A stretch of DNA of 64,000 nucleotides, from NCBI GenBank assembly GCA_963663405.2, contig CAXXSM010000076.1, forward strand, positions 96,001 to 160,000, in the 5' to 3' direction. The notes under the pieces are model-generated. The model was not told where the DNA came from. It searched no databases and was given only the letters and a program-made list of their open reading frames with translations. Of the stretch, positions 6,883-64,000 are shown piece after piece. The position numbers were made by a program, and so were the translations under genes. Every line of letters starts with the position of its first letter. Positions within the stretch are counted from its first letter, which is position 1. This stretch comes from a bacterium. GTDB lineage: Bacteria > Hinthialibacterota > Hinthialibacteria > Hinthialibacterales > Hinthialibacteraceae.

Positions 6883-7027
6883 CGTATTCCTCGATGAAGT
6901 TGTTTTACCAAAAACCGTGATTTAATTTGATTTTAAGGTAACATTCAATAAATGTAGATTGAATCCTGCATGAATTGCGCTAGATTTGAAAACGGATTAC
7001 TATATTTTTCAAAACTTAAAGGAGAGC

Positions 7028-28852: not shown

Positions 28853-28931
28853 TCATGCGGCACAAATCACGATACTATATTTGTTATAGCAAAATCGATT
28901 TGATTTGTCGGCGTTAGGGAGAGATGGAATC

Positions 28932-35834: not shown

Positions 35835-38800
35835 TCACCAATACCGTTTTCGTAATGTTACTTTTTTATAGTCTTTGTTTATATCAAAGAGTTCTTGGAG
35901 TGGTTTGAGATAGGGGCTTTCGGCGGGGGATTCATTGTTGATGGTTTCAATTGTTATGGTGTTTACCGGCGTGAAGGCCCGTTCGAGCATATCTTTGAAA
36001 AGTGAGTAATATTCAGGCAAATGAGAATCGTTGGGAGTTACTTTGATATCTAGATCTTTGCCATTGCGGCGGGAGATCATGACAAGTTGTTTACCGTGGT
36101 AGACAAGATGATTTGCGGGACGCCGTTCGGGTAGATTGTATTCGAGGCCCTCTACTGATACGCCGCAGAGGGATGCGGGATCGTTGGCGTTGATCCAAAA
36201 AATCGATTCCTCCGAAAGCCCGTTTTGCAGCGCGCGCAGGGCGGTGGATGAGATGAACTGCAAACCGGGAATTCCTTCAAAGAAACATCCCGCCATGATT
36301 TCTCCTGAAAGTTCCATCAGCCGCAGCGCTTTGAATAATGCGCCCCAGCGCAGCGCGGGCCGTTCGCGTATTAGCAATGTCCGGAAAAGAATCCCATATC
36401 GATCCAATAATAGCCGTACGCGGTCTTTCAGGCGTTCAAGTTCTTCTACGGCGTCCTGCGCGGGAGTGGGTGGATCGAGAACATACCAGTTGCCTGCGAA
36501 GGGCCGTGACATCTTCCAGCGGCTGAACGCTGCGCGGCGCCCGCCTCCATTGATTTGAGATAAATCGCTGGCCTGAAATTGATTCTCCACTCCTTTACGT
36601 AATGATCCAAACGAATCGTTGGTTACTTTTCCCTGCCAGACCAAATCCCATAACGCGTTGGTCAGGCTCGCGGAATCCAGGTTTGTGTGATTCAGCAATT
36701 GTGAGAAATCATACTTGCCTTTAGGATCGGGAAAGATCGTTTCTAAAGAGATTGAATTATTCGTTTCTTGTGTATTGATTTTTCCAGCAGGATCATTTTT
36801 GTTCCCACCGTTCTCTTCGATAAATAAATCCAATTGATCGTGGAAGCCGATGGTGACTTTCTCTTTTCCGCAGCCAATCCAGGCGAGATTGGTTTCCTGC
36901 ATGAGCGTGTCCATCGATGATGTGGAATAGGCGTTTATCCGGGCGGGGAGGAATTCACGTTCCCAAAGTTCTGGACTTGCTGGATAGGCGAAGAGTTTTT
37001 CGAGAGCGTATTGCAGGTGTTCCAGCGTATCTCCTTTTCGGGCGATTCCTTGATGAGACGCCAGGAAGAGTGGCAGCGCTTCGGGGGGGGAGTGGATCGA
37101 AATGGGGGATCGCTTCTTTCCTGGTGAGACGGAGTAGGATTTCCAAATTCTCGCTATCACATATTTCCTCTTCTGTACAACCGGCGCTGATCGAGCCGAT
37201 GACAACCCGTTCTGTTTCTACAAGTGTATCCAGCGCGGTGTTTAGACTGGATTCGGAGATCCCTAATGTTTCGAGAATGTAAGTTTTTGTAACTGGTCCG
37301 TAATATTGCAGCCATTGCCCCAGCCAATCGGCGAAGGGATCGCTGTCTTCTGAAACTGTTTCGTAGGGAGGTAGAGAACTTACAATTTCATTTATTGGCA
37401 GTTCTCTTTGATTGATTAGTGAATTGATTGATATCTGCGAACGGTCTATCTGTAGAGATGTAATGAACCGCGGAAGTTTTTCTAATGCGGTAATAGAAGC
37501 CGGCGTGTTTGCGGACCATCTGATCCACGCTATTTTCGTGTCTAATGTTTGTATTGTCTCACTGGGTTGGATTGAATGGTCTTTTTCTATCGCTTGAAGA
37601 AGGGCGATCCATTCGGCGCGTGGTATTAACAGGCGTTCTTTGATCCAATCCAATAGATCCACTGTCGTTCGTGGAGAGTAGCCGGGAAAAGTACGCTTTG
37701 CTTTCTGTTCAAAACGCTCGATCAATTCCCGCGCAATCTCCGGCCGTAAATCTTGTGAAAAAACCGCCTGTTTGATTAGATCATCGCGTAAATTCGAAAC
37801 GGCGCCGGCGGGAGAGTCTTCTTTATACATGAGCTGGTTGGTCTGCCGCCATAGAAGCCCTTCGGTGAAGGGGGAGGGAACATGGGTTGCGACTTCCGTG
37901 ATGGTGATTTCGCCTATGTGGATTTCATCCAATAGTTTTTTCAGTGTATTCAGGTCAAACTCATCCCGCAGACACCCACGCCATGTTTCCATGAGAATGG
38001 GGAAATCTTCATATTGAGTAATTGTGTCCAGAAGTTTTTTTTGAACGCATCCTATTCAGCCAAAGGGGCGTCCGCCGGTCGAAGGAATCGCGGGGTAAGA
38101 GCAGCGCCCGCGCGGCGTTTTCGCGAAACCGGGCTCCAAAAAAACCGCTTCGTTCCAATTTCTGTCGCAGCAACGATTCTATATCTTCCGCGCGTAGAGA
38201 AAGGAGGAATTCTTTAACAGGGAAATCATAAGGCGGAATGATCGCGATGGCGTCGTTGTGAGGCAGAATTTTTAGCTCGCTTCGATTTGTGTTTTCCCAT
38301 AAGGCGGAGAGCGCCAGCGCAAAAGGATAATTGACTTTCCCGCCCCATAATGTATGCAGAATCACCTGTGAACAGTTCTTATCACCGCCGGGAAACTGGG
38401 TGTATTCCACCAGCAAATTATGGCGATGTGGCAGCCCAGTTCCAGATGCTTTTTTTTGTTTTCGTAAAAAGAGAATCAGCGATCTTGCCGCTGTCTCTTC
38501 CATGCAATAGTCATGAATTAGTGTTTTTTCGAATCCAGAATCTTGAAGATTACTATCCGCTGTTTCGAGAAAGAGACTGATCTTTTCCGCAAGGTGGAAA
38601 TCGCGGTTGATCTCTTCCGCGATCCAAAACGGCGCTCCTTCTGTGGTTCCATCACTCAGCGCCGCGATGACGTCGTTGTGGGTGATCTGGTGGATTTTCC
38701 AATTTTGCGCGCCGAATGTGAACACATCACCTGGTTTATGTTCCCAGACAAATTCTTCGTCCAGTTCTCCAACCTTGGTTCCTGTGTCCCGGCGCCGCAG

Positions 38801-40329
38801 TATGAAATAGCCCCGGTCAGGGATCGTTCCACCGGATTGATAGACAAGGCGAAGCGTTTTTTCTTTGGCGCGAATGGTGTTGTCGATACGGTCGATGGAG
38901 ACGAGTGGTTGTAATGCGCGGTTCCGGCTTCCGGCGTAATGGCCGCTCAACATTTTAAGGACAAGATCGTATTCCACGCGGCTCAATTCGTGGTAGGGAT
39001 AACTGGTTTGGAGAAAATGATAGAGCGCGTCGATGTCCCATATTTCAACGCCGGTCATTGCGGCGATCACCTGAGCGAGCACATCCAGCGGGGATTGAAT
39101 CGTATGTCCGCTTTCGATTTCCCGATCGAGAACACAGCGTCCGATTGCGGCGGCTTCCAATAGATCGCGTCCATGAGTGGGGAAGAAGAGACCTTTGCTG
39201 ACCTCTCCAACGCGATGCCCGGCGCGGCCGATTCGCTGCAGGGCCGCTGATATTGACATGGGGGATTGGATCAAAATCACTTCATCCAATGCGCCGACAT
39301 CGATCCCCAATTCCAACGATCCCGTAGCGATGATCGCGGATAAATTTCCATTTTTCAAACGCTCTTCAACAATGCGCCGGGTTTCGAGGGAGAGGGAACC
39401 ATGATGCGGGTAAGCGATCAGTTGTTCTTCATCCTGATTGATGAGTAGAGCGATCTGTTCGCAGAGACAGCGGTTGTTGGCGAATAGAAGCGTAGAGCGA
39501 TTTTCGCGATGATCTCTTTTAATTGTTTGACCAGTGGCGGCCAGAAGTCCGTTTCTTCTAGATTCTCTCTTGGTTTGACGGGGAAATGGACGCGGATTTC
39601 GTAATCCTTGGATTGTTCGGAGCGGATAATTCGAACATCCCGCTTTTTATATTTCACATGTCCACCGTGTTCTTCAATCTGATACCCGCCAATGAAATCG
39701 GCTACTTCTTCAAGAGGTTTGACGGTAGCGGATAGGGCGATGCGTTGAAATTCTCCCGCCAGAAGAACGAGCCGGTCAACGGCGGTGATGAGATGGGTTC
39801 CGCGTTTTGTACGGGCGACCGCGTGGATCTCATCGAGGATGACGCATTCGATCTGTGTCAAGATCCTGCGTCCCCGCATGGAACTAATCAACAGGTTTAA
39901 ACTTTCCGGTGTGGTGATCAATATTTCCGGGGGATGACGCAGCATTCTCTCGCGTTCGCTGCGGGTCGTGTCACCGCTGCGGGTGAGAACGTTGATTTCT
40001 GGAAACGGAACGCCTGCGCGCTGGAAGTATTCGCGGATTTGCGTTAGGGGTTCGAGAAGGTTTCGTAAAATATCATTGTTGAGGGCTTTGAGCGGGGATA
40101 CGTATAGAATTCGGGTATGTCCGCGCGCCCATTGTTGTGTAACCAGACGATCGATCGCCCAGAGAAATGCCGTGAGTGTTTTGCCGCTGCCCGTCGGCGC
40201 GGTGATGAGCAGGTGTTCTCCACGCGCGATCGGCGGCCATGAGCGTTTTTGCACGTCGGTTGGAACGCCAATTTGTTCCGTAAACCAGTTTTGAATGATG
40301 GGATGAAAGAGTGATAGCGGATTCCCCAT
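35835..40329 (-). CDS. lhr: Lhr-family ATP-dependent DEAD/H helicase, split by three homopolymer frameshifts (likely sequencing errors)
   Basis: APTGSGKT, YVSPLKALNND, TTPESL, DEIH, LSAT, HHGSLS, SLELGIDVG, QRIGRAGH, ANDPA. Indels at ~39502 (A-run), ~38038 (8 T) and ~37086 (8 G). Confidence 0.9.
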
Positions 40330-42900: not shown

Positions 42901-44394
42901 TTATTGGTTTTTTTGAACGACTTGTATATTCGTTAATCGAAGCATGTTCTTACGCTCACCAGTTTCGGGATCAAGGCCGTTTCGGAGGCCGAATCCATAG
43001 AGCAGTTCACCGGGAGCCACTTCTGCTATCCATGTGTATCCGGAGTAGCGTTCAGGATGAACGCTGGTGTGATCCGTCCAGGTTTTGCCTTGATCCGCGC
43101 TGAACATGATCTTCGCGCCCGGCCGTCCGTAGCTACAAGCCAGCACTCCATTCGACATGACCACAAGGCATGGATAGACGCCGTCGATCCCGGTCCGGTG
43201 AGGACCATCCCATGTGAGGCCCTGGTCTTTGCTGTAAAAGATACATAGTGGATTATCTTTCCATTTTTGCGAATCACTGCCGGAACGGATGGCGGCGATG
43301 AGGGTACCGTTTTCAAGTTTCTTCAACGATCCCTCGTTCCATCCTTCGCTGCCCCAGTTGGGTTCATAGGCGATGGTGGAATAGTATTTCCATGTCTGCC
43401 CGTTGTCCGTCGAGCGAGTGAGGAAACTGCGGCGGTAATTCTGACCGTGCACAGGAGATTCTTTTGTGTCGGTGTCAAACCATCCACACATCAACGCCAG
43501 GAGAGAACCGTCGTCGATCTCTACGATTGAGCGCATGAATAATGGGCCAGGATGATAGGCGTGGCCGTGGGAACCGACAGCGTGGGGTACAGTAAACGGG
43601 CATTCAAACGGATCTTTGATGGTTTGACCGTTGTCATCGCTGGTGTACCGTTGACCGATGAATGCGCCTTTTTCTCCTTCTTTTGGCAATGTGCGGTACG
43701 CGAGACCGAGCAGCGAACTATCAGTAAATTCGTGTGATATCATGGCGGATTGAGAATGTCCTTTTCCCCACAACAGCGAGTCGTTCGTATAAGGTTTCCA
43801 TGTGTATCCTTTATCATCCGAATATTTTCCATCGCTGATAACACGTCCACTTGATGTGACAAACATGGTGTTGAAATGCGTTCCCTCGGCGAAGTAACGA
43901 TCCGGCTCGATCGAAATCGCTAGATGATCTTTTGGATCTTGCACTTTGATGGCGAAGTCGCGGTAATCTAGCGCGGGATGATCAGGGCCTTTGTGGATGG
44001 CGCTGGGTTCGATTGTAAAATTATGGATTCCACTTGGCCAATCCTTTGTGCTGATTTGTATGCGTAGTTTCCCCGCTTCTGGATCTAGATCGTTTTGTCC
44101 ATTGTCTTCAATCATTCCATTGGGGCCGTAATAGGCTTGCTGGTTCTCTTCATGGAACTGAAATCCAGGAAGGGTTTCTTCTTTTAGAATTGTGTAGGGA
44201 TGATGAATTGTCCAATTTTTAATATCAGAAAAGGATGTGTGAATGGAGATGGTTATGGGCTGTCCTTGTTTGACGGATAGCGGTTCGACAGAAAAATGGG
44301 TATAGATTCCTGTATGAGGAGTTTGCGCTTGAGCGGCGCCGGTTAGGATTAAAATGGATAGAGTGATAAATTTGCATTGTAGGGGAAAACGCAT
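42901..44394 (-). CDS. Secreted BNR/Asp-box (sialidase-like) protein
   Basis: Signal peptide and Asp-boxes SDDKGYTW, SDDNGQT, STDNGQTW, SKDQGLTW, SADQGKTW. Confidence 0.82.
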   Translation of the reverse strand: MRFPLQCKFITLSILILTGAAQAQTPHTGIYTHFSVEPLSVKQGQPITISIHTSFSDIKNWTIHHPYTILKEETLPGFQFHEENQQAYYGPNGMIEDNGQNDLDPEAGKLRIQISTKDWPSGIHNFTIEPSAIHKGPDHPALDYRDFAIKVQDPKDHLAISIEPDRYFAEGTHFNTMFVTSSGRVISDGKYSDDKGYTWKPYTNDSLLWGKGHSQSAMISHEFTDSSLLGLAYRTLPKEGEKGAFIGQRYTSDDNGQTIKDPFECPFTVPHAVGSHGHAYHPGPLFMRSIVEIDDGSLLALMCGWFDTDTKESPVHGQNYRRSFLTRSTDNGQTWKYYSTIAYEPNWGSEGWNEGSLKKLENGTLIAAIRSGSDSQKWKDNPLCIFYSKDQGLTWDGPHRTGIDGVYPCLVVMSNGVLACSYGRPGAKIMFSADQGKTWTDHTSVHPERYSGYTWIAEVAPGELLYGFGLRNGLDPETGERKNMLRLTNIQVVQKNQ

Positions 44395-44418
44395 ATTTGG
44401 TCTCCTATATGTTATTAT

Positions 44419-45297
44419 TCATTGATAGCATTGCGCATTCTTGTTGACGCTGACGGAAGAAAAACTTTCGTGAAAGAAATCCACGACTAAAGGAAGCGAT
44501 TCTTCCACAATACTGAATGTATGCGAACCTTCAAAGACCTTGTATTGATGGGGGATATCCAATTCAGTGAGTTTTTCATGAAAATGTTCGTTCATGGTGA
44601 AGTCAAAGGCTTGATCCGCTGTTGTCAGAAACAGACACATGGATTTTAAGTTGGCGGCGAGTGGAAGGGGATTGAACGATTCTTGTTGTTCTTGCGTAGT
44701 CCCAAAAATGGAAGGAACGCTGTGGTTTTGTTCCGTGGGGAGAGAAAAATTGGGGAAATCGAGCAATCCCAAAATCGCAGCGGCGGCTATGAACCTGTTT
44801 GCGTGTCGTTCCGCGTATCGAATCGCTCCAAAGCCGCCCATTGACCAACCTGTGATCCCCCGCTGTTTAGATAACTTGCTGATATTCAGATGTTTTTCGG
44901 AGACTTGGATTACTTCGTCAATGAATGTTTCGAATTGGCTTTGCGCTGAGACGGGACTATCGATCCACCACCCGTTTTCCCCATAGGGCATTATCGTTAC
45001 GAAACGGGCTGCCAATAAAGTCTCGCGTGTGGTTTCAAAATCGGTGAGTGAAAAATGGTTGCGTCCCGCGCCGTGAAGAAGGTACACCACCGGCCAGGGA
45101 GCGCCGGTATCGGAGTACTCTTTTGGAACGACCGCGGTGAATGATGTTAATTTGTTTAACGCGGGGCTTTGGATCCGATAATGGAAGATTTGATCATGGA
45201 TTGCCCGCATGTTGGTCACTTCGGGCTCATCGCAAACGGCTATCGTAGAGAAAATCATCCCCATCCAGATTCCCATGCTCCGATGGATTGCTCTCAT
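44419..45297 (-). CDS. Secreted alpha/beta-hydrolase esterase (CE1/tributyrin esterase-like)
   Basis: PVVYLLHG, nucleophile elbow GWSMGG, catalytic His in GSHTF. Confidence 0.88.
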   Translation of the reverse strand: MRAIHRSMGIWMGMIFSTIAVCDEPEVTNMRAIHDQIFHYRIQSPALNKLTSFTAVVPKEYSDTGAPWPVVYLLHGAGRNHFSLTDFETTRETLLAARFVTIMPYGENGWWIDSPVSAQSQFETFIDEVIQVSEKHLNISKLSKQRGITGWSMGGFGAIRYAERHANRFIAAAAILGLLDFPNFSLPTEQNHSVPSIFGTTQEQQESFNPLPLAANLKSMCLFLTTADQAFDFTMNEHFHEKLTELDIPHQYKVFEGSHTFSIVEESLPLVVDFFHESFSSVSVNKNAQCYQ

Positions 45298-45425
45298 GAC
45301 TTTTTCTCCATAAAATATGGTTAGAAACATGATTATTAGTATTCCTATACTAGAGTAATTAATGATTGAAGTAAAGATATATAGGAATATAATTTTTTTA
45401 ATTTTTGGGGTATTGTTAAATCTAT

Positions 45426-45439
45426 ATAATACGTATACT
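45426..45439. promoter_or_regulatory. LacI-type operator overlapping the -10 box (TATAAT 45425-45430) of the aldolase gene
   Basis: ATAATACGTATACT, identical to the site at 47065-47078. Confidence 0.7.
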
Positions 45440-45468
45440 ATTCGCTAAACTTCATATAGAGAGGCGTT

Positions 45469-46263
45469 ATGAAATCATTGCCGAATAATCGTGTATTGGA
45501 AACACTTCGAAGCGGGAAGATTGTTTTTTCCTGCAGCTTGACTCCAGTCTGTGATCCTAAAATCGCTGAATTGATTGGGCTGGTTGGATTCGATTGTCTT
45601 TGGATCGATATGGAACATCAGGATTTCGATTATCAAAGCGTATTTAACGCCTGCCTGGCTTGCCGGGCGACAGGGATGGAGCCGATGGTGCGTATCCGGC
45701 GGGAGGGGCGTCATTCCTGTTTCCGGGGATTCGAAGTAGGGGGGACGGGGATCATGGTTCCGCATTGTATGGGGGAGGTGGACGCCAAAACGATTGTGAA
45801 AGAGGCGCGGTTTTCTCCTATGGGTTTGCGTGGCATGGATGGTGTTGAGGTGAGCGCCCGCTATGGGATGACGCCGATGGAGGAGTATATCGAATGGGCC
45901 AACCGGGAAACGTTCATCGTTGTTCAGATCGAGGACCGGGAAGCGGTGGATGAGATTGACTCGATCGCCGCCGTGGAGGGAATCGATATTCTTTTTATCG
46001 GTCCGGGAGATCTGAGTCAGAGTTATGGACGGCCTGGGCAGTGGGATTGTCCAGAGATCCAACGCGCGTTTGAGCAGGTCGCCCAAGCGGCAAAGGAACA
46101 TGGAAAATATTGGGGCGCGCCGGGAGGCAATCCGGAACGAGCGCGGACATTGATTGAAATGGGTGCCCGTTTTCTGAACACCACATCATTGAGCGGTATT
46201 ATGCGGAAGGGATTTCAAGACGCGTTTGAATCTTTTGACGCTGTGCGGCGGGAATTTGGTTAA
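45469..46263 (+). CDS. HpcH/HpaI aldolase family protein
   Basis: GFDCLWIDMEH, RFSPMGLRG, VQIE and FIGPGDLS. Confidence 0.92.
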   Translation: MKSLPNNRVLETLRSGKIVFSCSLTPVCDPKIAELIGLVGFDCLWIDMEHQDFDYQSVFNACLACRATGMEPMVRIRREGRHSCFRGFEVGGTGIMVPHCMGEVDAKTIVKEARFSPMGLRGMDGVEVSARYGMTPMEEYIEWANRETFIVVQIEDREAVDEIDSIAAVEGIDILFIGPGDLSQSYGRPGQWDCPEIQRAFEQVAQAAKEHGKYWGAPGGNPERARTLIEMGARFLNTTSLSGIMRKGFQDAFESFDAVRREFG

Positions 46264-46289
46264 TCACGCATGATGAATACTATCCATTG

Positions 46290-46832
46290 TTAAAATCCCA
46301 GTTCGTAAATATCCCCGATGCTTACCAAACCATTCGAGCTGTCATATTCCATATGAATACCAAGCGCTCCTTCCGCTGTGCTGGGTTCGTATAATCCATT
46401 CGGGGCGGCTCCTAATAAGATATACGTTCCTTTGGCGTCGCGTACGCGTGGCATATGATCAAATTCTCCTCCATCCCGTTTTCCATCCGCTACATCAATC
46501 GGCCAATAGGGGTAGACATCTCCATCCCGATCCGTGAGTCCTTTGGGGCGGAACGGATCGTAGGGGATTGAGGAGAGGTAGGGAGTGGGTGTGGTGAGGC
46601 GGATCAGGCGGGTTAAGCGTCCTGAAATGCCTGGTGAGTAGGACGGGTATTCGTTGTTATCGAGCCGATATTGCGCCAATCCCATTTTGATGGCGCGCAT
46701 GTCGGATACGCTCCGGGCGACTTTAGCGCGGATTTGCGCGTTCAGAAAATTGGGGACGGCGATCGCCGCCAGAATCCCAATAATAGCCACGACAATCAGA
46801 AGTTCGATCAATGTGAATCCGTTTGCTTTCAT
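46290..46832 (-). CDS. Pilin-like protein (paralog 6)
   Basis: Start reassigned to MKANG|FTLIELL (AGGTG SD). LTTPTPYLSSIPYDPF and YDSSNGLVSIGD. Confidence 0.93.
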   Translation of the reverse strand: MKANGFTLIELLIVVAIIGILAAIAVPNFLNAQIRAKVARSVSDMRAIKMGLAQYRLDNNEYPSYSPGISGRLTRLIRLTTPTPYLSSIPYDPFRPKGLTDRDGDVYPYWPIDVADGKRDGGEFDHMPRVRDAKGTYILLGAAPNGLYEPSTAEGALGIHMEYDSSNGLVSIGDIYELGF

Positions 46833-46864
46833 GTTTTCACCTGATAGTGTACCGGGATCGAGGT

Positions 46865-46878
46865 AGTATACGTATACA
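46865..46878. promoter_or_regulatory. LacI-type operator upstream of pilin 6
   Basis: Near-perfect palindrome AGTATACGTATACA between a minus-strand TTGACA (46901-46906) and the pilin start. Weaker site TTTTAACGTATACA at 46970-46983. Confidence 0.72.
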
Positions 46879-47040
46879 TTTTTTTGTGATTTTATCCATT
46901 TGTCAAGAGAATCTATCACAATTTTATGAAGAAAATATTAAAAAAGAAATTTCTTGGGATCAATTGGTTTTTTAACGTATACATGCCTTTGTATCAGAAT
47001 TATTTTGGATATTTTATTTCCTGTTTTTGGAAAACAATGG

Positions 47041-47078
47041 TTGACGGGGTAGGCAAGAGTGTGAATAATACGTATACT
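47041..47078 (+). promoter_or_regulatory. Sigma70-like promoter with overlapping LacI-type operator
   Basis: TTGACG-17nt-AATAAT, with operator ATAATACGTATACT at 47065-47078. Confidence 0.68.
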
Positions 47079-47137
47079 AAAAATGCTTTAAATATTCTAT
47101 GAAGGACCAAATTCTATCCAGAAAGGGTGAACTCAAA

Positions 47138-48610
47138 ATGATGGGGCTGAAAAAGGGATTTGGATTGTTGATTTTAGGGCTGCTTGCCGTGAATGTTGGG
47201 CTGGCTCAAGAGTGGAGCGCCGTGTATACGGAGGATTTTGAAGCGGCCGCTGTTGGGGAGAAGCCCGAAGGCTGGACCGGTGGCGATGGGGACGATACGG
47301 ATGATGTCAGCATCTTTTGGGAGGTCTCCGATTTCGTGGGTTTTGATAACGAGCCATCCGGAACCACGCATAATCTGTCCATCGGTGACGACAGCGATCA
47401 AGGAAACGCCGTCATTGCCATGCCGTTTCCGGCGCAAACGGAAAACTTCAAATTGACGATTTACGTAGGAAACAATCGTCCAGGAAGTTCGTTTCTGCGA
47501 ATCGCTTTGGGCGATTCGGAGGATGGCGGTCTTGATGGCGCGGGAAAATTGGGAATCGGGTATTTGAATATGAACATGAATACAACAAATGGCCTGCTTC
47601 CCAACTTCAACAGCGCTGTGGATGGGATCACTCTCCCTCATGGCAATGCGGCGCTGCATAAAGTGGAATATTACGTGGCCCGGAATGAGGAGAATACCGC
47701 GTATACACTCGCCGCCGTTACGATCGATGACATTGCGGTTCTGCCCGCCACGCCAACGGAGAATGCGCGTACTCAGTTGAATCTAATGTATTTAATAACA
47801 AGCACCAGCGGGACCAATGTCGATCTCACAATTGATGATATCACCATTGAAGTGGGTGGTTCTGGAATCGAAGCGCCGCCTGATATGGAATTCACGCCAT
47901 CGGATACCGTTTATGAAGAAACCTTTGAATCCATCGATTTGAATGGTGTTCCAGAGAATTGGACGCCGGGCGATGGCGATGATTCCGATGGTTCGGTTGT
48001 GGTTTGGGGCGTGTCGGATATGACTGATTTTGAGGGAATCCCGGATGGTTCCACGAAAACGATGTATCTCCTAGATGAATTCGATAGCGGGAACATTATC
48101 GCTGAAGTGGCGATCGACGCGCAGGACGCTCCCATCCGTTTTAGTTTTTATGTGGGGACAACGGAAACCAGTGAAGGAGATGAAGACGATGATACTGTGC
48201 GCGTGGCTATGGGGGATAGCGCCGATGGAGGCATCGCATCAAGTGGAAAGGATGGGATCGGATTTTTGGATGTCACGTTCCGGCCAATCACGGGGGATCT
48301 GAAACTGGATTTTAGTAATACGGAACATCCATCCGGATTTACTGTGCCTCATGCGGATGGGCAGATGCATTTGATAGAATACGTTGTCTTCCGGAATGAG
48401 GATGGTACCGCGTATGAAATGCGCAAAGCGTTTGTTGATGGCGTCGAGGCCTATCCGTTGTCCTATGTGGAATTCCAGCGCGCACAGATCGATCTGCTTC
48501 GTTTCATCACCTATACCGGTGGATTTCATCATATTTATTTAGATGATGTGCGTGTTGAAATTGGCTCCCAGGCAAAATTGACGGAAATTGTGAATTGGAG
48601 TTTGTTCTAG
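47138..48610 (+). CDS. Secreted acidic protein with two tandem jelly-roll-like domains and C-terminal W-motif
   Basis: Signal peptide and internal duplication (VY.E.FE....P..WT.GDGDD.D...W.VSD). Ends TEIVNWSLF. Confidence 0.82.
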   Translation: MMGLKKGFGLLILGLLAVNVGLAQEWSAVYTEDFEAAAVGEKPEGWTGGDGDDTDDVSIFWEVSDFVGFDNEPSGTTHNLSIGDDSDQGNAVIAMPFPAQTENFKLTIYVGNNRPGSSFLRIALGDSEDGGLDGAGKLGIGYLNMNMNTTNGLLPNFNSAVDGITLPHGNAALHKVEYYVARNEENTAYTLAAVTIDDIAVLPATPTENARTQLNLMYLITSTSGTNVDLTIDDITIEVGGSGIEAPPDMEFTPSDTVYEETFESIDLNGVPENWTPGDGDDSDGSVVVWGVSDMTDFEGIPDGSTKTMYLLDEFDSGNIIAEVAIDAQDAPIRFSFYVGTTETSEGDEDDDTVRVAMGDSADGGIASSGKDGIGFLDVTFRPITGDLKLDFSNTEHPSGFTVPHADGQMHLIEYVVFRNEDGTAYEMRKAFVDGVEAYPLSYVEFQRAQIDLLRFITYTGGFHHIYLDDVRVEIGSQAKLTEIVNWSLF

Positions 48611-48621
48611 ACCAGCGATCC

Positions 48622-48650
48622 GGGAGGAGAAATGGATGGCTTCTCCTTCC
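48622..48650. terminator. Hairpin between convergent genes
   Basis: GGAGGAGAA...TTCTCCTTCC inverted repeat. Confidence 0.45.
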
Positions 48651-48652
48651 GG

Positions 48653-49672
48653 TTATCCGGATTCCCGGCAGATGATTTCGCGGCTGACGAACACTTTTTG
48701 ATAGGGCGCCGGCAGTTCCTCTTCATTCAATACGGTTCCCGCTACGAAACCACAGACAGCGTCAAGGATTTCGTGAGTGAATTGTGGAACGGATGTGATG
48801 GAGGGGAGCGTATAGCGGCAGATCGGAAAATTCTGATATCCGATCACGCGCAGATGCTTGGGAACGGACAAACCCGCGTCATGCAGCGCCCGGATCGCTC
48901 CAATCGCCTGCGCGTCGGATACGCATACGATGCTGTCCGGTTTCATGTTTTGTGACAGGGCTTCGTGTGTCAACATATAACCGCCATGTTCGTCGAAATC
49001 TCCATGATTGAGAATCAGGCGGTGGATTCGTTTTGCTTTGCAGAATTGTTCGTAAGCGGCGATGCGGGCCTTGTCGACTTGGCTGGTCCAATGGCGGCCG
49101 AGGTAGAGAATGCGGCGGCAGCCGCGTTCCCATAAGTAATCAAGAGTCGCCCGGAACTGCTGTTTGTAATCGATCGTGATGGAGTGAAATTCATCCAGCA
49201 AACGTCCGATGAACAAAATGGGAATCGGCAAATGAGCCATATTTTCACGAAACCAGTCATCGCCTTGGAGAGAAGTTCCCATGATGATGCAGAGCCGGTA
49301 CGAACTCAGGCCGAGGTTGATAAAATACGTCGGATCATTTAAGAGGCGGTCTTCTTGGAGATTGTGGAAGAAGAATGAGGCTTTTGCCATACCCTCCATA
49401 GTTTGGAGCCGGTCCCGGATGCCATGATACACGAGCGGGCTTTTAAAAATATTGCAGAACATGATCCGCAATTCGGTTTTTTGCCCTTTCAATTCACGGG
49501 CCGCTTCGTTGCGAACGTAACCGAGTTCTTTGATCGAGTGTAAGATGCGGTTTTTGGTTTCCTCGGTTATGCTGAAGTTGTTGATTTCACCGTTCAAGAA
49601 ACGGGAAACCGTTGGTTGAGAAACGCCCGCGAGACGGGCGACGTCTTTCATCGTTGGTTTGTTCTTTTTCAT
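48653..49672 (-). CDS. LacI family transcriptional regulator
   Basis: TMKDVARLAGVSQPTVSRFLN HTH, ELGYVRNEAARELK hinge, SDAQAIGAIRAL..GLSVP. Confidence 0.95.
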   Translation of the reverse strand: MKKNKPTMKDVARLAGVSQPTVSRFLNGEINNFSITEETKNRILHSIKELGYVRNEAARELKGQKTELRIMFCNIFKSPLVYHGIRDRLQTMEGMAKASFFFHNLQEDRLLNDPTYFINLGLSSYRLCIIMGTSLQGDDWFRENMAHLPIPILFIGRLLDEFHSITIDYKQQFRATLDYLWERGCRRILYLGRHWTSQVDKARIAAYEQFCKAKRIHRLILNHGDFDEHGGYMLTHEALSQNMKPDSIVCVSDAQAIGAIRALHDAGLSVPKHLRVIGYQNFPICRYTLPSITSVPQFTHEILDAVCGFVAGTVLNEEELPAPYQKVFVSREIICRESG

Positions 49673-49887
49673 GATCGGCGGTTACGATGCGCTAAATGAT
49701 AATTATGCAATTGAAAATGTTGGACTGTAACGATTGAAAAATGGACAATGCGCATTGATTAAAAACAGTGTTAATAGGCTCAATGTGAAACGTGTTCTAA
49801 CGAGATCGGTTGTATCGCATTGATGAATTGAACACAGAGTTTTGAACTGGATTCAACTGGTATTCATTCTATATCCAAATATTGATT

Positions 49888-52200
49888 ATGTCACTTCGTA
49901 CATTACAGAAACGAACGATTGAATGTGATCTTACGATCATCGGCGGCGGATTGGCGGGTGTTTGCGCGGCGATTACCGCGGCGCGTTTGGGATTGCGTGT
50001 AGTTTTAATTCAAGACCGGCCGGTTTTGGGGGGGAATTCCAGCAGTGAAATTCGCCTGTGGGCGTTGGGGGCGACATGTTACGGACGATCGCACAACCGG
50101 TATAGCCGTGAAAGCGGTGTTATGGGAGAACTGTTTATTGAAAACCGGTATCGCAATCCCGAAGGGAATCCCGTCATTTGGGACACAATCCTGCTGGAGT
50201 GGGTTCACCGGGAATCCAATATAACATTATTGCTGGATACTGCAGTATACGATGTCACGATGGATTCTACTTACCCGAATCGGATTCGATCGGTTCACGC
50301 GCTCAGCGCGTTGAATCAAAATGAATATAAGGTTCGTTCGCCCTTATTTCTCGATTCGAGTGGAGATGGGATTGTTGGGTATCTCTCCGGCGCTGAATTC
50401 CAGATGGGCCGTGAAGCAGCGCAGACGTATCAAGAGCGTTTCGCGCCCCCACAGGATGACCGGCGCCTTCTCGGTTGTTCAATCTATTTTATGAGCAAGG
50501 ACGCCGGGGAACCGGTTCGTTTTATCCGCCCGGATTATGCGCTGGATCTTGCTGCAACTGATATTCCCAAATTCCGCCGGATCCGGTCTGAAGAGAACGG
50601 GCCGGAATTTTGGTGGATCGAATATGGTGGATTGATGGATACTATTCACGAAGCGCATTCGATCAAATGGGAACTCTGGCGAATTGTGTATGGGATTTGG
50701 GATTATATCAAGAATAGCGGTCAATGCGCAAATACGGAAAACTTAACTTTGGAATGGGTGGGTTTGATTCCGGGTAAACGTGAATCGAGGCGGTTCATTG
50801 GCGATTACGTTTTGACGCAATCCGATATCACAGAACAAAGGCGTTTTTCCGACGCCGCCGCGGTTGGGGGATGGCCCATCGATCTGCATCCCGCGGAAGG
50901 TGTTTTTTCCTGTGAAAACGCTTGTTCACAAGAACATCCCGATGGCGTCTATACCATTCCATATCGTTGTTATTACTCAAAAAATATAGAGAATCTGTTT
51001 TTAGCAGGGCGTATTATTTCCGCGTCTCATGTGGCGTTTGGATCGGCGCGGGTTATGGCGACCTGCGCGGTGGGCGGGCAGGTGGTTGGCGCGGCGGCTT
51101 ACCTGTGCCGGATGGCGTCTTTAACTCCTAGACAGTTGAGCGGCGATGGCGCCGAATCTTTGCAAAACCTTTTATTGAGAGAGAATCAAGATATCCATTG
51201 GCTGCGGGGAGAGGATCCGGTTAACATCGCTCGAACGGCGAATGTGGCAAGTTCGACGTACCGGAAACTTTCCAGTTTCTCTATCAAGTCTGATTCTAAA
51301 TATTCGATTGATGACGATTTTGCGTTGATGTTTCCGGTAACAGAGGGGCGATTGGATCAAATCACGTTTCCAATTGCGGCTGAGCGGGATACATGTGTCT
51401 CCGTTTCAATCTGGATTAATGATAAGAAAATGAATTACATTCCGAATTGTAAGTTATGGGAAGAGACGATTTCAATTCCAAAATCTGAATCTTACAATTT
51501 AGTTATCCCCGCCGATCTTTGTTTCAAAGAGCCATTGTTTGTCTGGGTGATTGTAAATAAGAATGAAGATATTTCTTTTTTTCAATCCAGTGATCAAGCG
51601 GTAGGTGTCATCGCAAAAAAACCGGAACGGCCCCGTGAACTCCATCACCAATATGTGGGACAATTGATTTGGAAGCCACGAAAAATCAATGTGGCTTTTT
51701 CCATCGAGCCCGCGCAGGATTGCTATCAGCCTGGAAATGTAATTAATGGATACTCACGGCCTTTGCAAACGCCCAATTGTTGGAGTTCGGAGCGATTAAA
51801 AGATGGTGAAACGGAATGGATACTACTTCGGTGGGATTCACCGCAGACGATCACTCAAATCGATGTGATCTGCAACGCTGATTGGGATAATCCTTTGGAA
51901 ACCCTGTTCACCCGGCATCGCGATCGGACGTTGGAAGAAATCTTGAGAGATGTGGATATAGAAATCCAGGATCCGGATGGTTCCTGGCGCGCGATTCAAC
52001 GTGTGCGGGGAAATCATCATACCATGATCCGGACGTGTATAGAACCGGAAGTCGTAAAGGCGGTTCGTGTGACTTGTCTTGCCGCGAATGAAGAGTATCC
52101 GTTCGCAGAGATTTTTGATATTCGTGTGTATACCGCTGGTTGTGATGTGTATTGGAAGAAGGCGGCGCAGATTCAATCCGCAAATGGAAATGCAGAATGA
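49888..52200 (+). CDS. FAD-dependent oxidoreductase with C-terminal carbohydrate-binding-like domain
   Basis: IIGGGLAG..AAITAAR.G, DRPVLGGNSSSE, DSSGDG, GKRESRRF.GDY, GGWPIDLH and SARVMAT. Confidence 0.9.
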   Translation: MSLRTLQKRTIECDLTIIGGGLAGVCAAITAARLGLRVVLIQDRPVLGGNSSSEIRLWALGATCYGRSHNRYSRESGVMGELFIENRYRNPEGNPVIWDTILLEWVHRESNITLLLDTAVYDVTMDSTYPNRIRSVHALSALNQNEYKVRSPLFLDSSGDGIVGYLSGAEFQMGREAAQTYQERFAPPQDDRRLLGCSIYFMSKDAGEPVRFIRPDYALDLAATDIPKFRRIRSEENGPEFWWIEYGGLMDTIHEAHSIKWELWRIVYGIWDYIKNSGQCANTENLTLEWVGLIPGKRESRRFIGDYVLTQSDITEQRRFSDAAAVGGWPIDLHPAEGVFSCENACSQEHPDGVYTIPYRCYYSKNIENLFLAGRIISASHVAFGSARVMATCAVGGQVVGAAAYLCRMASLTPRQLSGDGAESLQNLLLRENQDIHWLRGEDPVNIARTANVASSTYRKLSSFSIKSDSKYSIDDDFALMFPVTEGRLDQITFPIAAERDTCVSVSIWINDKKMNYIPNCKLWEETISIPKSESYNLVIPADLCFKEPLFVWVIVNKNEDISFFQSSDQAVGVIAKKPERPRELHHQYVGQLIWKPRKINVAFSIEPAQDCYQPGNVINGYSRPLQTPNCWSSERLKDGETEWILLRWDSPQTITQIDVICNADWDNPLETLFTRHRDRTLEEILRDVDIEIQDPDGSWRAIQRVRGNHHTMIRTCIEPEVVKAVRVTCLAANEEYPFAEIFDIRVYTAGCDVYWKKAAQIQSANGNAE

Positions 52201-53726
52201 ATGAAAGTATAGGTTTTGGATTTTGGGATGTAGCCGTTTTGATTGCATACTTTGGCGTTGTGGTGGGGGTGGGTTTTTTCTTCCGCAAACACCAATCCCT
52301 TTCGGATTATTTCCTGGCGGGCCGCCGGACACATTGGCTGATTGTAGGGATTTCGATTATCGCAACATTATTCAGCGCTGTCTCGTTTGTCGCGCTGCCC
52401 AGCGAAGCCTATGCGAATGGTTTATCGATGTATCCGCGATCGCCGCTGGTGATTCTCGTGGCCCCACTTGTGATTCTTCTTTTTATTCCATTTTATTTAC
52501 GCAGGGAAATCTTCACCGTCTTTGAGTATTTAGAGGAACGCTTCAATCTTCCCACCCGGCTTATCGCCAGTGGTATTTTCTTGTTGGTCCGGAGTTCGTA
52601 TGTCGCTGTAGTTTTTTATGCCAGCGCCAAAGCCTTTCAACCTGTGTTTCATGTTCCGATTCCTGTTATCATCATTGGTGTGGGTTTTATCGCTACAGCG
52701 TATACGGCGCTTGGTGGAATGAAGGCGGTGATCTGGACGGATTTTTTTCAGTTTATCATCCTGTTTGGGGGAATCCTGATTGTATTGTTTAAGTTGATCG
52801 GTGAGAGTGGAGGGGGGATCACTGAAATCTATTCATTCGCATCCGAGCGTCAACATGGTTTTGATCTATGGGCCACGGAATCGTTTTATTCGTTTTCGCT
52901 GTATGAACGAGTGACGCTGTGGTCGATTTTCGCGTATGTGTTGGTCTGGAATTCATATACCTATGGCGTCGATCAGCTGACAGTCCAGCGGTATCTGTCA
53001 ACAAAAGACCAAAAGGAAGCGGCGAAAGCGTCGTTTTTTCAATTTTTGATGCTGCTTCCATTTGTCGCTTCGTTTTGGTTTGTCGGCACGGCTCTTTTTT
53101 ATCACTATGGAATGAATCCATCCCTGGCTCCTCCCTCTTCGATTGATAATGATAGTATCCTTAGTTATTACATTCTCTCAGAATTGCCACCCGGTCTTGT
53201 TGGGTTGATCTTCGGCGCCATCCTCGCCGCTGTGATGTCGACTGTCGATTCGGGAATTAATAGTCTGACGACAGCGACGATTATTGATTTTTATAAGCGG
53301 CTTGGAAACGTTCCACGCAGCGATCGGGCCTATCTCGCATTGTCCAAGCGTTGGACTTTGTTCTGGGGGGTGTTTAGCATTTTGGCGGCCTGCGCGATTG
53401 CGATGGTTTCCGAAAGCGCCAATACGACGATCATTGAAGTGACGGCCATCTGGGGAAACTTGAACGCGGTTCTTCTCGGCGTTTTTTTACTAGGTATGCT
53501 GACCAAACGATGTTCGCCGATATCGATTTATATAGCGATGGCGGCTGGGATATTCACAACCGTTTATGTTTCTACTTTCATGTATTATCAAGCTTCGGAA
53601 GAGCAACGAATTTCATTCATGTGGATCGGCGCAATTATTTTAGGGGCGACTTGCGTCACAGGATATGTGTGCAGTTTTATCTTTCCTAATCAAACTCCCG
53701 TTGGCAATGAGCAATCTATACAATAA
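52197..53726 (+). CDS. Sodium:solute symporter family transporter
   Basis: DYFLAGR, FEYLEERF, GGMKAVIWTD, DQLTVQRYL and AAVMSTVDS. ATGA overlap with the upstream gene. Confidence 0.93.
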   Translation: MNESIGFGFWDVAVLIAYFGVVVGVGFFFRKHQSLSDYFLAGRRTHWLIVGISIIATLFSAVSFVALPSEAYANGLSMYPRSPLVILVAPLVILLFIPFYLRREIFTVFEYLEERFNLPTRLIASGIFLLVRSSYVAVVFYASAKAFQPVFHVPIPVIIIGVGFIATAYTALGGMKAVIWTDFFQFIILFGGILIVLFKLIGESGGGITEIYSFASERQHGFDLWATESFYSFSLYERVTLWSIFAYVLVWNSYTYGVDQLTVQRYLSTKDQKEAAKASFFQFLMLLPFVASFWFVGTALFYHYGMNPSLAPPSSIDNDSILSYYILSELPPGLVGLIFGAILAAVMSTVDSGINSLTTATIIDFYKRLGNVPRSDRAYLALSKRWTLFWGVFSILAACAIAMVSESANTTIIEVTAIWGNLNAVLLGVFLLGMLTKRCSPISIYIAMAAGIFTTVYVSTFMYYQASEEQRISFMWIGAIILGATCVTGYVCSFIFPNQTPVGNEQSIQ

Positions 53727-53763: not shown

Positions 53764-54987
53764 TTATAGAAGACCTATAGGAATGGCGTATGTGTTGTTG
53801 GCAAGCGGTATTACCTGTTTGCATAGGCATATGATTCCCCCTTCTCCCCGCTTATGTTGAAGATTGGATAAACATCTGAATGTGCGCGTCCATTCTCGTT
53901 TTGGCGTGGCGGATTTCTTGACCTCAACAGGATATAGAGTCTGGTCTTGTAAGAACATAAAATCAATCTCTTGTCCATCCTTATCTCTATAGAAATAGAT
54001 TTGTGGAATCCGTCCACGGTGACGCCAACTCTTGAGGATCTCGGTAAACACATATGTTTCCAGAATCGGTCCTGACATAGCGCCTGCTTCCAGAGTTTCG
54101 GGGGATGTCCATTCGGTAAGATACGCGCATAATCCTGTGTCAAGAAAGTACAGTTTCGGTCTTTTTACAAGTCTCTTAGTAAGGTTGCTATAGTAAGGTT
54201 GAAGGAGATAGACTTGATGGCTTGCCTGGAGGATGGATAGCCAGTTTTTCGCTGTGTTTACACTGATATCCGCATCTCTTGCCAGATCTGAGTAATTCAG
54301 CAGTTGTCCCGTCCGGGCGGAACAGGCTTTAAGGAATTTGAGGAAAGACGCTTCATTCCCCACTTGCGTCAAGTCTCTGACATCTCTTTGTAAATAGGTC
54401 TGAACGTAGGAACTGAAGAATAGATCGCGGTTTTTAATTGGGCCGGCGGTTAAAGAGGGAAAGCCTCCCAGCCAGATGTCTTTATACACGCGCCGTAAAC
54501 TGGAACTGGTTTGTGAACTCTCTCGTTCAGCAATATGGTTTTTTGTTGGGAGAAACGGATCTACATTGAGGGAGGTTTTTTGCCGTTCCCGGTTTGAAAA
54601 TCCATAGAGTTCCAGTATCGCGACTCGGCCGGCCAGCGTTTCTGTTACACCTTTCATCATATGAAACTGCTATGATCCTGTCAGCCAAAACGCGCCTGGT
54701 TCTCTGTTTGCGTCGACTTCCATTTTGATAAAGGGAAGCAGTTCTGGCGCGTATTGGATTTCATCAATCAGAACGGGGCTGTTGAATCGTTGTAGAAATA
54801 GAGCGGGATCTTCTTTGGCCAAACTCCGCAAAACGGGATCGTCAAGTGTAACGTATCTTCGGCCGGAATCGCATATTTTTTGTAGAAGTGTTGTCTTGCC
54901 GGTTTGACGGGCTCCAGTAAGTAAAACAGCTGGAAATTGCTTGGACGCATCGAGCCAGCAGTCACTCATCGCGCGAGGGTGGTACAT
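53764..54987 (-). pseudogene. AAA_14/DUF4143 ATP-binding protein interrupted by an in-frame TAG at 54670-54672
   Basis: GARQTGKT, IDEIQYAP, WLTGS*QFHMMKGVTETLAGR, KLYFLDTG and EIDF..VEVK. Both halves are in the same frame. Confidence 0.8.
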
Positions 54988-55075
54988 AGAATAGGCTCCG
55001 TCTATTTTGCAATATGGTTGCATTATAGACGGAACGTAGATTCATGATAAGTGGGTATACTCACTTTTTTTAGAA

Positions 55076-60363: not shown

Positions 60364-60737
60364 TGTTTCAATCTTTCCTCCGAGTATCTTTTTAAGTATA
60401 TCGAAGATTGAAAGATCGTCAAAAGTATATGCTTTGGTAAACTTGCCAAAATTCATTGGGATTCTTCTAGAAGCGAAATCAGACGCCTTGAGACCGAAAT
60501 ACTATGAACGGATGAACCTCTTTTTTGTCTATCTAAATATGAATGTGGCTTGATATGAATGTGGCTTGGATTGTTCGAGTGAATCGAAATCTGAATATCC
60601 CGATCAATGTGTTTGTGTATAATTTTGTAAAAAATCGAATGGTTGATACGATACGATACAATATTTTACATTGCTTTATTGAATTAAGAATGAATGCAAA
60701 TTTAATAAGACAGATTGAAATATAGGAGAGAATAATT

Positions 60738-62905: not shown

Positions 62906-64000
62906 TTAGCGAATATATTCATTGAGGATATTTTCGAGATACTCCTGCCGTCCGCTTTGGACTTCAGGTTCACCGTTTTCGAGGGTGTATGCGTTGAGGG
63001 ATTCGAAGTCCATTTCTCTGTTTTCGATCTTTTGGCCAAGTCCGGTGTCCCAGCCGCCGTATCGCTGTTGGAGGAAATCTTCGAAGGGTTTCTCTTCGAT
63101 TAACTTCGCCGCGATTTTTAAGCCCCGCGCAAAAGCGTCCATTCCACCGATGTGCGCATGGAAGAGATCGGCTCCATCGATCGACTGCCGTCTCACTTTG
63201 GCGTCGAAATTGAGCCCTCCTGTTTTAAAACCACCCGCTTTAGTGATGATGTACATCCCCAGCGCCGTGTCGTAGAGATCGGTCGGGAATTGATCGGTGT
63301 CCCATCCTAACAATAGATCTCCCCCGGTTCGCGTCGACGGATCCTAGGATGTCATTCGCGGCGCAGAACGCCAGTTCGTGGTGGAATGTGTGGCCCGCCA
63401 ATGTGGCGTGGTTCGCTTCGATGTTCATCTTGAAATCGTTCACGAGTCCATATTTTTGGAGGAACGCGTAGCAGTTCCCCGCGTCGAAATCGTATTGATG
63501 CTTTGTGGGTTCTTTGGGCTTGGGTTCAATATAGAATTGGCCTTCAAAGCCGATTTTCTTTTTATAATCAACCGCCATATTTAAAAACGCGCCTAGGTGA
63601 TCGAGTTCGCGTTTCATGTCCGTGTTTAAAAGAGTTTCGTAACCTTCCCGTCCACCCCAGAATACATAGCCTTCTCCACCCAGTTCTTTGGTGACTTCCA
63701 TCGCTTTTTTTACTTGGCTGGCGGCGTAGGCGAAAACGGCGGGAGATGGATTGGTCGCCGCGCCCGCGAGAAACCGGCGGTGACTGAACATATTGCTCGT
63801 TCCCCATAGCAGTTTCATCCCTGCGTCCGCCTGCTTTTTCTTGGCGAGAGAGACGATATGATCCAAGCGTTTATTGGTTTCATCGAGCGTATCGGCTTCC
63901 GGGGCGATGTCCCGGTCGTGGAAACACCAGAATTGAACGCCCAGTTTGGTAAAGAATTCAAACGCGGGCGTCCAACGTCATTTCTGCGATCTTCATTGGA
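62906..64000 (-). CDS. xylA: Xylose isomerase, 5' end beyond the window, +1 homopolymer frameshifts at ~63323 and ~63966
   Basis: [58 protein letters not shown] and [11 protein letters not shown]. Confidence 0.96.

Follow-up and report, generated by a model that had tools for sequence, protein, structure and literature searches.

A sugar-catabolic locus, very probably under one LacI-type repressor, pairs an orphan GspG-like pilin with a lectin-like protein and hints at pilin-linked export or display of sugar-binding proteins

Introduction

The Pul type II secretion system of Klebsiella oxytoca belongs to the maltose regulon and is expressed together with its cargo, pullulanase. Here we analyze a locus from a bacterium of the Hinthialibacterota that resembles Pul in that a gene for a GspG-type pseudopilin sits in a predicted substrate regulon together with a gene whose exported product belongs to the same sugar pathway. 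The locus occupies positions 42901-53726 of a 64,000-nucleotide stretch (G000:C76:96001-160000, the whole of which we call the window; G000 is the genome and C76 the contig). It is very probably a sugar-breakdown cluster switched by one LacI-type repressor, whose controlled genes include those for a pilin-like protein and for a lectin-like protein that ends in a tryptophan-containing motif (the W tail; proteins that carry it are called W-tagged). Unlike the Pul regulon, which holds the whole machine (about 14 genes) and has an enzyme as cargo, this locus has one orphan pseudopilin gene, the machines are encoded elsewhere, the partner is a W-tailed, non-catalytic protein of predicted lectin fold, and the regulator is of LacI type.

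The polysaccharide utilization loci of Bacteroidota provide a second comparison. Like them, the present locus clusters a regulator, exported hydrolases, a non-catalytic binder and a transporter, and the surface glycan-binding protein SGBP-B (7kwb, from B. thetaiotaomicron) is among the fold matches of the W-tagged protein. The Bacteroidota loci are substrate-induced, as we infer this one to be. The present locus departs from them in having a pilin gene and no SusC/SusD, a Na+ symporter of the inner membrane as its transporter, and a binder that is not a lipoprotein. A sequence-only reading of this DNA had placed the pilin and the W-tagged protein where SusC and SusD would be expected. This is a loose analogy: to our knowledge SusC/SusD are not expected outside Bacteroidota, and the genome assembly (82% complete) has no match to SusD (PF07980) and two to Plug (PF07715), both outside the locus. 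The same reading correctly noted the absence of a TonB-dependent receptor or an ABC binding protein, neither of which appeared in a Pfam scan of the locus proteins.

Three described systems link type IV pilin-type proteins or type II secretion to polysaccharides or nutrients. In Caldicellulosiruptor bescii the CbPilA pilus is described as xylan-induced and as serving polysaccharide attachment, and its locus adjoins the tapirins, which are non-catalytic binders (10.1101/614800). As described there, C. bescii is Gram-positive and has a single major pilin in a complete pilus locus (10.1101/614800), whereas the present genome, of diderm type and known from its sequence alone, has about 129 orphan paralogs spread over separate catabolic loci. 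The bindosome of Sulfolobus solfataricus is described as type IV pilin-type machinery that serves nutrient acquisition and not motility (PMC3047682). In that account the Sulfolobus sugar binders themselves bear the class III signal peptide, whereas the binder of the present locus carries an ordinary signal peptide and the small pilin is a separate protein. A planctomycete growing on fucoidan is reported to up-regulate type II secretion (PMC11685898). The DUF1559 proteins of Planctomycetes are described as families of dozens to hundreds of prepilin-type paralogs, of unexplained function, in polysaccharide degraders (PMC2754498); unlike these, the pilin here matches T2SSG and not PF07596, and one member is tied to a predicted repressor regulon. 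None of these systems, from Pul to DUF1559, is a cassette of an orphan pilin and a binder, and we found no such cassette in the literature covered by our search, outside which most subscription journals lie. The main text of a paper on the Hinthialibacterota (PMC9324843) mentions neither prepilin, type II secretion nor sialidase, and the laminarin-PVC paper (PMC13526803) contains none of six pilin-related terms.

Results

LacI-family operators are CG-centred palindromes, and the sequence-only reading had listed four such 14-mers, at 45426, 46865, 46970 and 47065. All four are present, but only three are full sites. The copies at 45426, 46865 and 47065 have at most two mismatches to the 14-bp consensus AGTATACGTATACT, which is CG-centred and a perfect or near-perfect palindrome. 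Putative operator O1 (ATAATACGTATACT, 45426..45439, 20.4 bits) lies between the divergent esterase and aldolase genes, with 29 nt separating it from the aldolase ATG; O2 (AGTATACGTATACA, 46865..46878, 20.6 bits) lies directly downstream of the promoter-like -10 of the pilin gene; and O3 (again ATAATACGTATACT, 47065..47078, 20.4 bits) overlaps the -10 of the tagged gene. The fourth copy, TTTTAACGTATACA at 46970..46983, is only a weak right half-site, with 6 bits against about 21 for the other three. Its stretch is missing from the three orthologous intergenic regions, and on these two grounds we rejected it as an operator.

The earlier reading had proposed a genome-wide position weight matrix scan for the palindrome. 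We trained the matrix only on nine sites from three other genomes to avoid circularity, and scanned the 8.44-Mb assembly (47% G+C, 170 contigs). O1, O2 and O3 were the top three of 334 matches with at least 10 bits, O2 being the genome's best and all three standing at 20.4-20.6 bits against 17.7 for the next, which makes the palindrome specific to the locus. Simple pattern counts likewise set the three sites apart from chance: TATACGTATA with at most one mismatch occurs five times in the window against 0.78 expected, a number reached in one of 100 shuffles, and of the 40 genome-wide matches to TACGTATAC on both strands four lie within this 1.65-kb stretch.

The LacI-family repressor is encoded at 48653..49672 on the minus strand (Pfam LacI 2.6e-15; effector domain Peripla_BP_3 3.8e-24). 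Its helix-turn-helix domain scores 56.4 bits for PF00356 (cut-off 27) and is the only match to that family in the whole assembly; a phmmer search with the protein returned a single further relative in the genome, which lacks the helix-turn-helix. All three putative operators lie within 3.3 kb of the only LacI helix-turn-helix of the assembly. Being specific to the locus, conserved in four genomes (below) and close to this sole domain, the palindrome has the properties expected of an operator for the neighboring LacI protein, and in this respect we regard the regulator part of the system as an ordinary local regulon of LacI type.

We then compared the locus with 41 related genomes (G000 included) for the tagged protein and with the 26 genomes of the order for LacI and the pilin. 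Orthologues of the tagged protein were found in four of the 41 and LacI orthologues (E 1e-40 or better) in four of the 26, while for the pilin head (residues 31-180) G012, G001 and G020 have counterparts of 79-83% identity and no other match in the 26 genomes exceeds 51%. The three proteins co-occur in exactly G000, G012, G001 and G020, which belong to four genera in two families. Gene order is identical in the four, and the pilin is the locus protein with the highest conservation. In all of them a site within two or three mismatches of the consensus precedes both the pilin gene and the tagged gene. The site before the aldolase gene is also present in G012 and G020; the G001 contig stops before that gene. 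The pilin/tagged intergenic regions of the four genomes align with 54% mean identity, and within them AATACGTATACTA forms a 13-nt invariant island and the TTGACA -35 boxes of both divergent promoters are kept. A stretch of unknown bases breaks up the tagged gene of G001. Directly after the pilin gene and on its strand, G012 and G020 have a second BNR-like gene, about 560 codons long (L006:7864-9546, minus; L007:11615-13309, plus), that the window lacks.

Promoter-like sites were found for three genes. The tagged gene has TTGACG-17-AATAAT (47041..47069, plus strand), whose -10 overlaps O3; the pilin gene has TTGACA-17-AAAAAT (46906-46878, minus), whose -10 abuts O2; and the aldolase gene has TTGAAG-16-TATAAT (45366-45393, plus), with O1 33 nt downstream. 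Thus, of the operator positions read earlier from the sequence, overlap with the -10 box stands for the tagged gene and a site ahead of the pilin gene stands as well, here abutting the promoter-like -10, but at the aldolase gene the operator lies 33 nt beyond the best promoter-like match instead of overlapping it. The promoter scan as a whole was not above chance (21 found, 17.9 expected), and the matches are therefore consistent with repression without being proof of it. The pilin gene possesses a conserved putative operator and a -35 box of its own, so that on comparative-genomic grounds its co-regulation with the catabolic genes is well supported.

The fourth-best matrix match, CGTATACGTATAAT (17.7 bits, G000:C36:26060-26073, locus L016), lies on another contig between a second operon of a pilin and a W-tagged (Laminin_G_3) gene and a GH32N/GH43-like gene. 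The single LacI protein may also control this second pilin-lectin pair.

The pilin gene (46290..46832, minus strand) encodes a GspG-like pilin or pseudopilin of 180 residues, and its end lies only 26 bp from that of the aldolase gene. The protein starts with the leader MKANG followed by FTLIEL, with Gly at -1 and Glu at +5, a class III signal peptide, and carries the C-terminal motif YDSSNGLVSIGDI. It matches Pfam N_methyl (2.6e-8; 33.5 bits, cut-off 21.2), TIGR02532 (34.5 bits, cut-off 16.3) and T2SSG (1.3e-6; 28.9 bits, cut-off 21), and reaches 67.3 bits for the GspG equivalog TIGR01710, below its cut-off of 88.85; its Pfam matches with E up to 0.01 do not include PF07596 (DUF1559). As the protein contains no cysteine, it lacks the disulfide-bonded D-region of type IVa major pilins. 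The usual gsp-operon partners (secretin, ATPase, platform and minor pseudopilins) were absent from the locus in a Pfam scan, and matches to machinery components lie on other contigs: nine to secretin, seven to T2SSE and two to prepilin peptidase (A24).

A regular expression identified 129 pilin-type genes among the 7541 open reading frames (ORFs) of a crude call that serves as the gene set of this genome. In an alignment of 29 copies (including window positions 12776-13333, 19768-20406, 27854-28483, 28950-29582 and 46293-46832 and those of loci L011-L030), the N-terminal 26 residues of the mature proteins hardly vary and the heads are 38-47% identical; one assembly machinery apparently serves all copies. 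With the family profile, 22 of the order's 26 genomes gave at least 81 matches each and the remaining four gave 66-78; genomes elsewhere in the class gave from 36 to at least 81, and six outgroup genomes gave 0-4. With an orphan gene, no D-region disulfide and about 129 paralogs, we rejected the major subunit of a motility pilus as an identity for this protein.

The W-tagged gene (47138..48610, plus strand) encodes a protein of 490 residues with a Sec signal peptide that ends in VNWSLF. It has no match in Pfam or NCBIfam, and its single relative among 1.84 billion protein representatives is the G020 orthologue. The two halves are 35% identical to each other (E 2.5e-45), and the predicted structure consists of two beta-sandwich domains followed by a disordered tail, whose last ten residues, LTEIVNWSLF (48578..48607, plus), have a predicted local distance difference test score (pLDDT) of 30. 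Foldseek matched the model to tandem CBM22, BT3469, the lectin wings of the Vibrio cholerae sialidase and SGBP-B. Residues 253-479 superpose on lectin domains with Z 14-17 and a root-mean-square deviation (rmsd) of about 3.2-3.7 over 176-200 residues. The closest structures are the beta-sandwich domains of the sialidases Am1547 (8hls; Z 17.4, rmsd 3.2, 188 residues aligned) and BT_1020 (5mqr; Z 16.9), followed at Z about 15 by calreticulin, the L-type lectins ERGIC-53/Emp47 and the sialic-acid-binding domain of the V. cholerae sialidase. On the strength of this model the tagged protein is a tandem protein of ConA-like lectin fold, and the fold alone suggests that it binds sugar. Two complex predictions of the mature tagged protein (25-490) with the pilin head (30-180) both scored 0.00; run without control pairs, they are uninformative either way.

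Next we considered whether pilin and tagged genes go together across the genome. With the W tail defined as W-x-[LVIM]-[YFHW] no more than three residues from the stop, 177 of the 7541 crude ORFs carry it, mostly in the form T/P-x-V-x-D/N-W-x-L-Y. Four further W-tailed ORFs lie in the window, at 6986-8038 (DHWYLY), 29746-31215 (VNWMVH), 57829-60456 (DDWRLY) and 62093-62713 (ENWDLYDK). The adjacency of pilin and W-tagged genes, which the earlier reading had proposed to examine statistically, is enriched in this genome: 23 of the 129 pilin genes have a tagged gene as immediate neighbor against 5.9 ± 2.3 expected (1000 label shuffles, maximum 14), or 3.9 times chance. Of 252 neighbor slots, 23 (9.1%) hold a tagged gene, compared with 2.3% of genes genome-wide. 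Because untagged genes with a crude signal-peptide-like start are not enriched in the same slots (59 of 252, 23.4%, against 23.9% genome-wide), the excess is specific to the tag and does not extend to exported proteins generally, within the reach of the crude predictor. The pairs are on the same strand in 18 cases, divergent, as here, in four and convergent in one. The other pair read earlier from the sequence is confirmed, with another pilin gene of the window (28905-29585) lying upstream of the tagged gene at 29746-31215.

The surroundings of these pairs were scanned at 20 loci outside contig C76, covering 124 non-pilin ORFs of at least 100 codons; the three C76 pairs, this locus included, were omitted. 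Among the tagged partners, 14 have no Pfam match at 1e-5, two have CBM9, and one each has Laminin_G_3, cohesin with dockerin, sulfatase or a Kelch fragment. Genes for glycan or sugar-acid metabolism occur in 13 of the 20 pair loci against five of 20 random pilin-free loci (Fisher p 0.025). Their types in the 13 loci are GH2, GH13, GH32/43, GH106, BNR, sulfatase, FGE-sulfatase, CBM9, GFO/IDH/MocA and CE4, and in addition an enolase-type dehydratase with SDR and MFS. For the random loci 144 of 147 ORFs were scanned, at 1e-8, a threshold that all classifying matches of the pair set also pass. One pair locus on contig C18 (G000:C18:51831-58603, L012) combines a piece of an SSF symporter, BNR_2, a pilin, a W-tagged gene, an AraC regulator and a DHDPS/NanA-type lyase, and appears to be a second design of similar logic, also of ulosonic-acid type.

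Every gene of the eight-gene cluster read earlier was found in its place. Besides the three described above, the locus starts with a secreted BNR/Asp-box beta-propeller protein of 497 residues (42901..44394, minus; signal peptide, five Asp-boxes, Pfam BNR_2 1.5e-10), a candidate distant sialidase-like hydrolase. Its weak matches among PDB sequences are to GH33 sialidases and BNR proteins (E 3e-8, residues 322-445 only), and its orthologues in the three genomes are 68-71% identical. It is followed by an exported alpha/beta-hydrolase esterase (PF00756; 44419..45330, minus; 2.6e-13; orthologues 55-63% identical) and a class II aldolase of the HpcH/HpaI family, of 2-keto-3-deoxy sugar acid type (45469..46263, plus; Pfam HpcH_HpaI 2.7e-25), for which the top NCBIfam models are GarL, HpaI and rhamnonate aldolase. 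Beyond the LacI gene lie a cytoplasmic FAD-dependent oxidoreductase (PF12831; 49888..52200, plus; 770 residues with a long C-terminal extension; Pfam FAD_oxidored 9.8e-89), for which no close solved relative was found, and a sodium/solute symporter (52197..53726, plus; Pfam SSF 1.1e-44, TIGR00813 1.3e-62), whose probable start, judged from the translation, is the ATG at 52197 that overlaps the oxidoreductase stop.

Elsewhere in the window, each of three runs of adjoining or overlapping ORFs on the same strand resembles a single gene split by frameshifts: four helicase-like pieces at 35835-40329, a DUF4143 protein with an upstream piece at 53764-55023, and two overlapping pieces at the window end (62906-63866). 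Window positions 44400-49700 are found, in whole or in part, in contigs of four sequencing runs from two studies, none of which is listed as RNA.

Discussion

What is unusual in this locus is an orphan GspG-like gene with its own putative operator in a catabolic regulon, paired with a non-catalytic protein of lectin fold. We propose that the locus is a catabolic island under repressor control, serving the use of a glycan whose breakdown gives a 2-keto-3-deoxy (ulosonic-type) sugar acid. The sole LacI protein would bind AGTATACGTATACT at three promoters. One serves the aldolase gene and probably also the divergent esterase/BNR operon, and the other two serve the pilin gene and the W-tagged gene; a substrate-derived inducer would lift repression at all three. 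The induced cell would export the BNR hydrolase, the esterase and the non-catalytic tandem-lectin protein; the freed sugar acid would be imported by the Na+/solute symporter and then handled by the FAD oxidoreductase and the HpcH aldolase. The pilin would be cut by prepilin peptidase and assembled by a type II secretion or type IV filament machine whose genes lie elsewhere; it would be a substrate-dedicated subunit that aids the surface export or display of the lectin and perhaps of the enzymes too. A BNR propeller, an esterase, an aldolase of 2-keto-3-deoxy type, a Na+ symporter and a lectin whose fold neighbors flank sialidases lead us to infer that the substrate glycan releases an ulosonic sugar acid (sialic acid, KDN, Kdo or a Dha-like acid). 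Repressor binding, induction and filament assembly stand in this scheme as predicted steps. We hold the whole of it, a LacI-controlled island with a substrate-dedicated pilin that helps to export or display the lectin, with moderate confidence, while a physical link between pilin and lectin is more uncertain than the scheme as a whole. The sequence-only reading had the pilin co-induced with the catabolic genes and acting in substrate capture or uptake. Its co-regulation agrees with the conserved operator and -35 box, whereas capture or uptake is one reading among several, and a role in exporting, displaying or assisting the lectin appears to us the best supported.

Several observations weigh against this proposal. 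Control by LacI fits the left half of the locus but not, in this genome, the oxidoreductase/symporter operon: between the LacI and oxidoreductase genes of the window no canonical operator was found within four mismatches, and among the four loci only that of G020 has a canonical site before this operon. In the window, the same intergenic region carries a different perfect CG-centred palindrome, CAATGCGCATTG, at 49746-49757. The region is poorly conserved in the alignment, the palindrome is not kept in the three orthologous loci, and a half-copy lies about 65 nt downstream (about 49811); the palindrome may bind another regulator or have diverged from a site of autoregulation. The four carrier genomes are relatives and not independent samples. 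The substrate is a guess, because the match of the BNR protein to sialidases is weak and confined to the last 120 residues and the aldolase falls under the cut-offs of its NCBIfam models. The structural models also limit what can be read from them: that of the tagged protein is middling (pLDDT 68, predicted template modelling score 0.58, six alignment rows), and that of the pilin, built from 29 paralogs and orthologues (pLDDT 79), matches EpsG/GspG (3gn9, 4lw9, 3fu1) with TM-scores of 0.57-0.61 by target length, at probability 0.89-0.96 and E of at least 0.17, while its best fold match (E 0.05) is under Foldseek significance. Coordinated expression, repressor binding and any contact between pilin and tagged protein are hypotheses.

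The genome-wide pairing has its own limits. Pilin and tagged protein had been suggested to form the core of a nutrient-acquisition system, and the enrichment agrees with this, but only 23 of 129 pilin genes (18%) have a tagged neighbor and 13% of tagged genes have a pilin neighbor, so that the pair is not an obligate unit. One tail is common to all tagged proteins whereas the pilin heads differ, which fits a common reader of the tail better than docking to a specific pilin. The sorting of loci as glycan-catabolic was post hoc, unblinded and made by the analyst, and without the partner's own domain p becomes 0.054.

Of the other explanations, the one that survives best is a glycan-binding, adhesive pilin fiber, as in cellulolytic Firmicutes, with the lectin a separate, co-induced protein that never touches the pilin. 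Variable heads on an N-terminal helix that is invariant in 29 paralogs would suit many ligands on one machine; in the C. bescii study xylan induces the major pilin, which binds xylan and cellulose (10.1101/614800); and the pilin promoter and its putative operator are separate from those of the tagged gene. However, such a fiber leaves unexplained why pilin genes are enriched beside W-tagged but not exported genes generally and why 18 of 23 pairs share a strand, and the small head, of about 150 residues, has no match to a known carbohydrate-binding family. We therefore regard it as doubtful.

Less probable again is that the pilin-like protein is not polymerized and that its class III signal peptide serves to anchor a small protein in the periplasm or at the surface, as a chaperone, a receptor or a binding component for the pathway. 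The archaeal bindosome and the "solute-binding" label once given to DUF1559 proteins offer precedents: sugar-binding proteins of Sulfolobus are described as having class III signal peptides and needing a dedicated assembly system (PMC3047682). About 129 paralogs against a handful of machines would also fit an anchor. A near-invariant N-terminal helix that includes Glu+5, however, is what filament packing or recognition by the machine demands and goes beyond the needs of an anchor; the pilin matches T2SSG and, as noted, not PF07596; and secondary symporters, such as the transporter of this locus, work without a binding protein. A purely incidental pilin, placed by chance in a divergent promoter region with operators that serve the neighboring catabolic genes and without a role in the pathway, is the least probable of the three: pilin genes are indeed numerous, here (129, about one per 65 kb) and throughout the order, and 82% of them have no tagged neighbor, but this orthologue is restricted to the four locus-bearing genomes at an identity that no other paralog approaches, its own -35 box and operator are kept in all four, and it is the first gene of an operon with the second BNR-like gene in G012 and G020.

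Beyond a pilin that aids export or display of this one lectin lies a broader idea, in which the roughly 129 pilins and 177 W-tailed proteins are two halves of one modular surface system. Shared type II secretion / type IV filament machines would assemble the substrate-induced pseudopilins into short fibers that export or carry the W-tailed lectins and enzymes of the matching locus. We consider this speculative and rather unlikely. If true, the modular system would be a counterpart of SusD/SGBP display or of the cellulosome in bacteria almost without TonB-dependent transporters, and the present locus would be the first pilin-lectin pair tied to a defined repressor and operator.

This lineage and its neighbors have a hundred or more pilin-like genes to which no function has been assigned, and degrade complex glycans without SusC/SusD. 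The locus provides a concrete handle on them, with one pilin, one lectin-like partner, one repressor, three putative operators and four genomes, and it makes the association of many pilins with many glycan genes testable with recombinant proteins and synthetic DNA, for which culture is not needed. If the pilin is needed for export or display of the lectin, this would be a new use of type IV filaments in nutrient acquisition, and would also point to a reader of the W tail.

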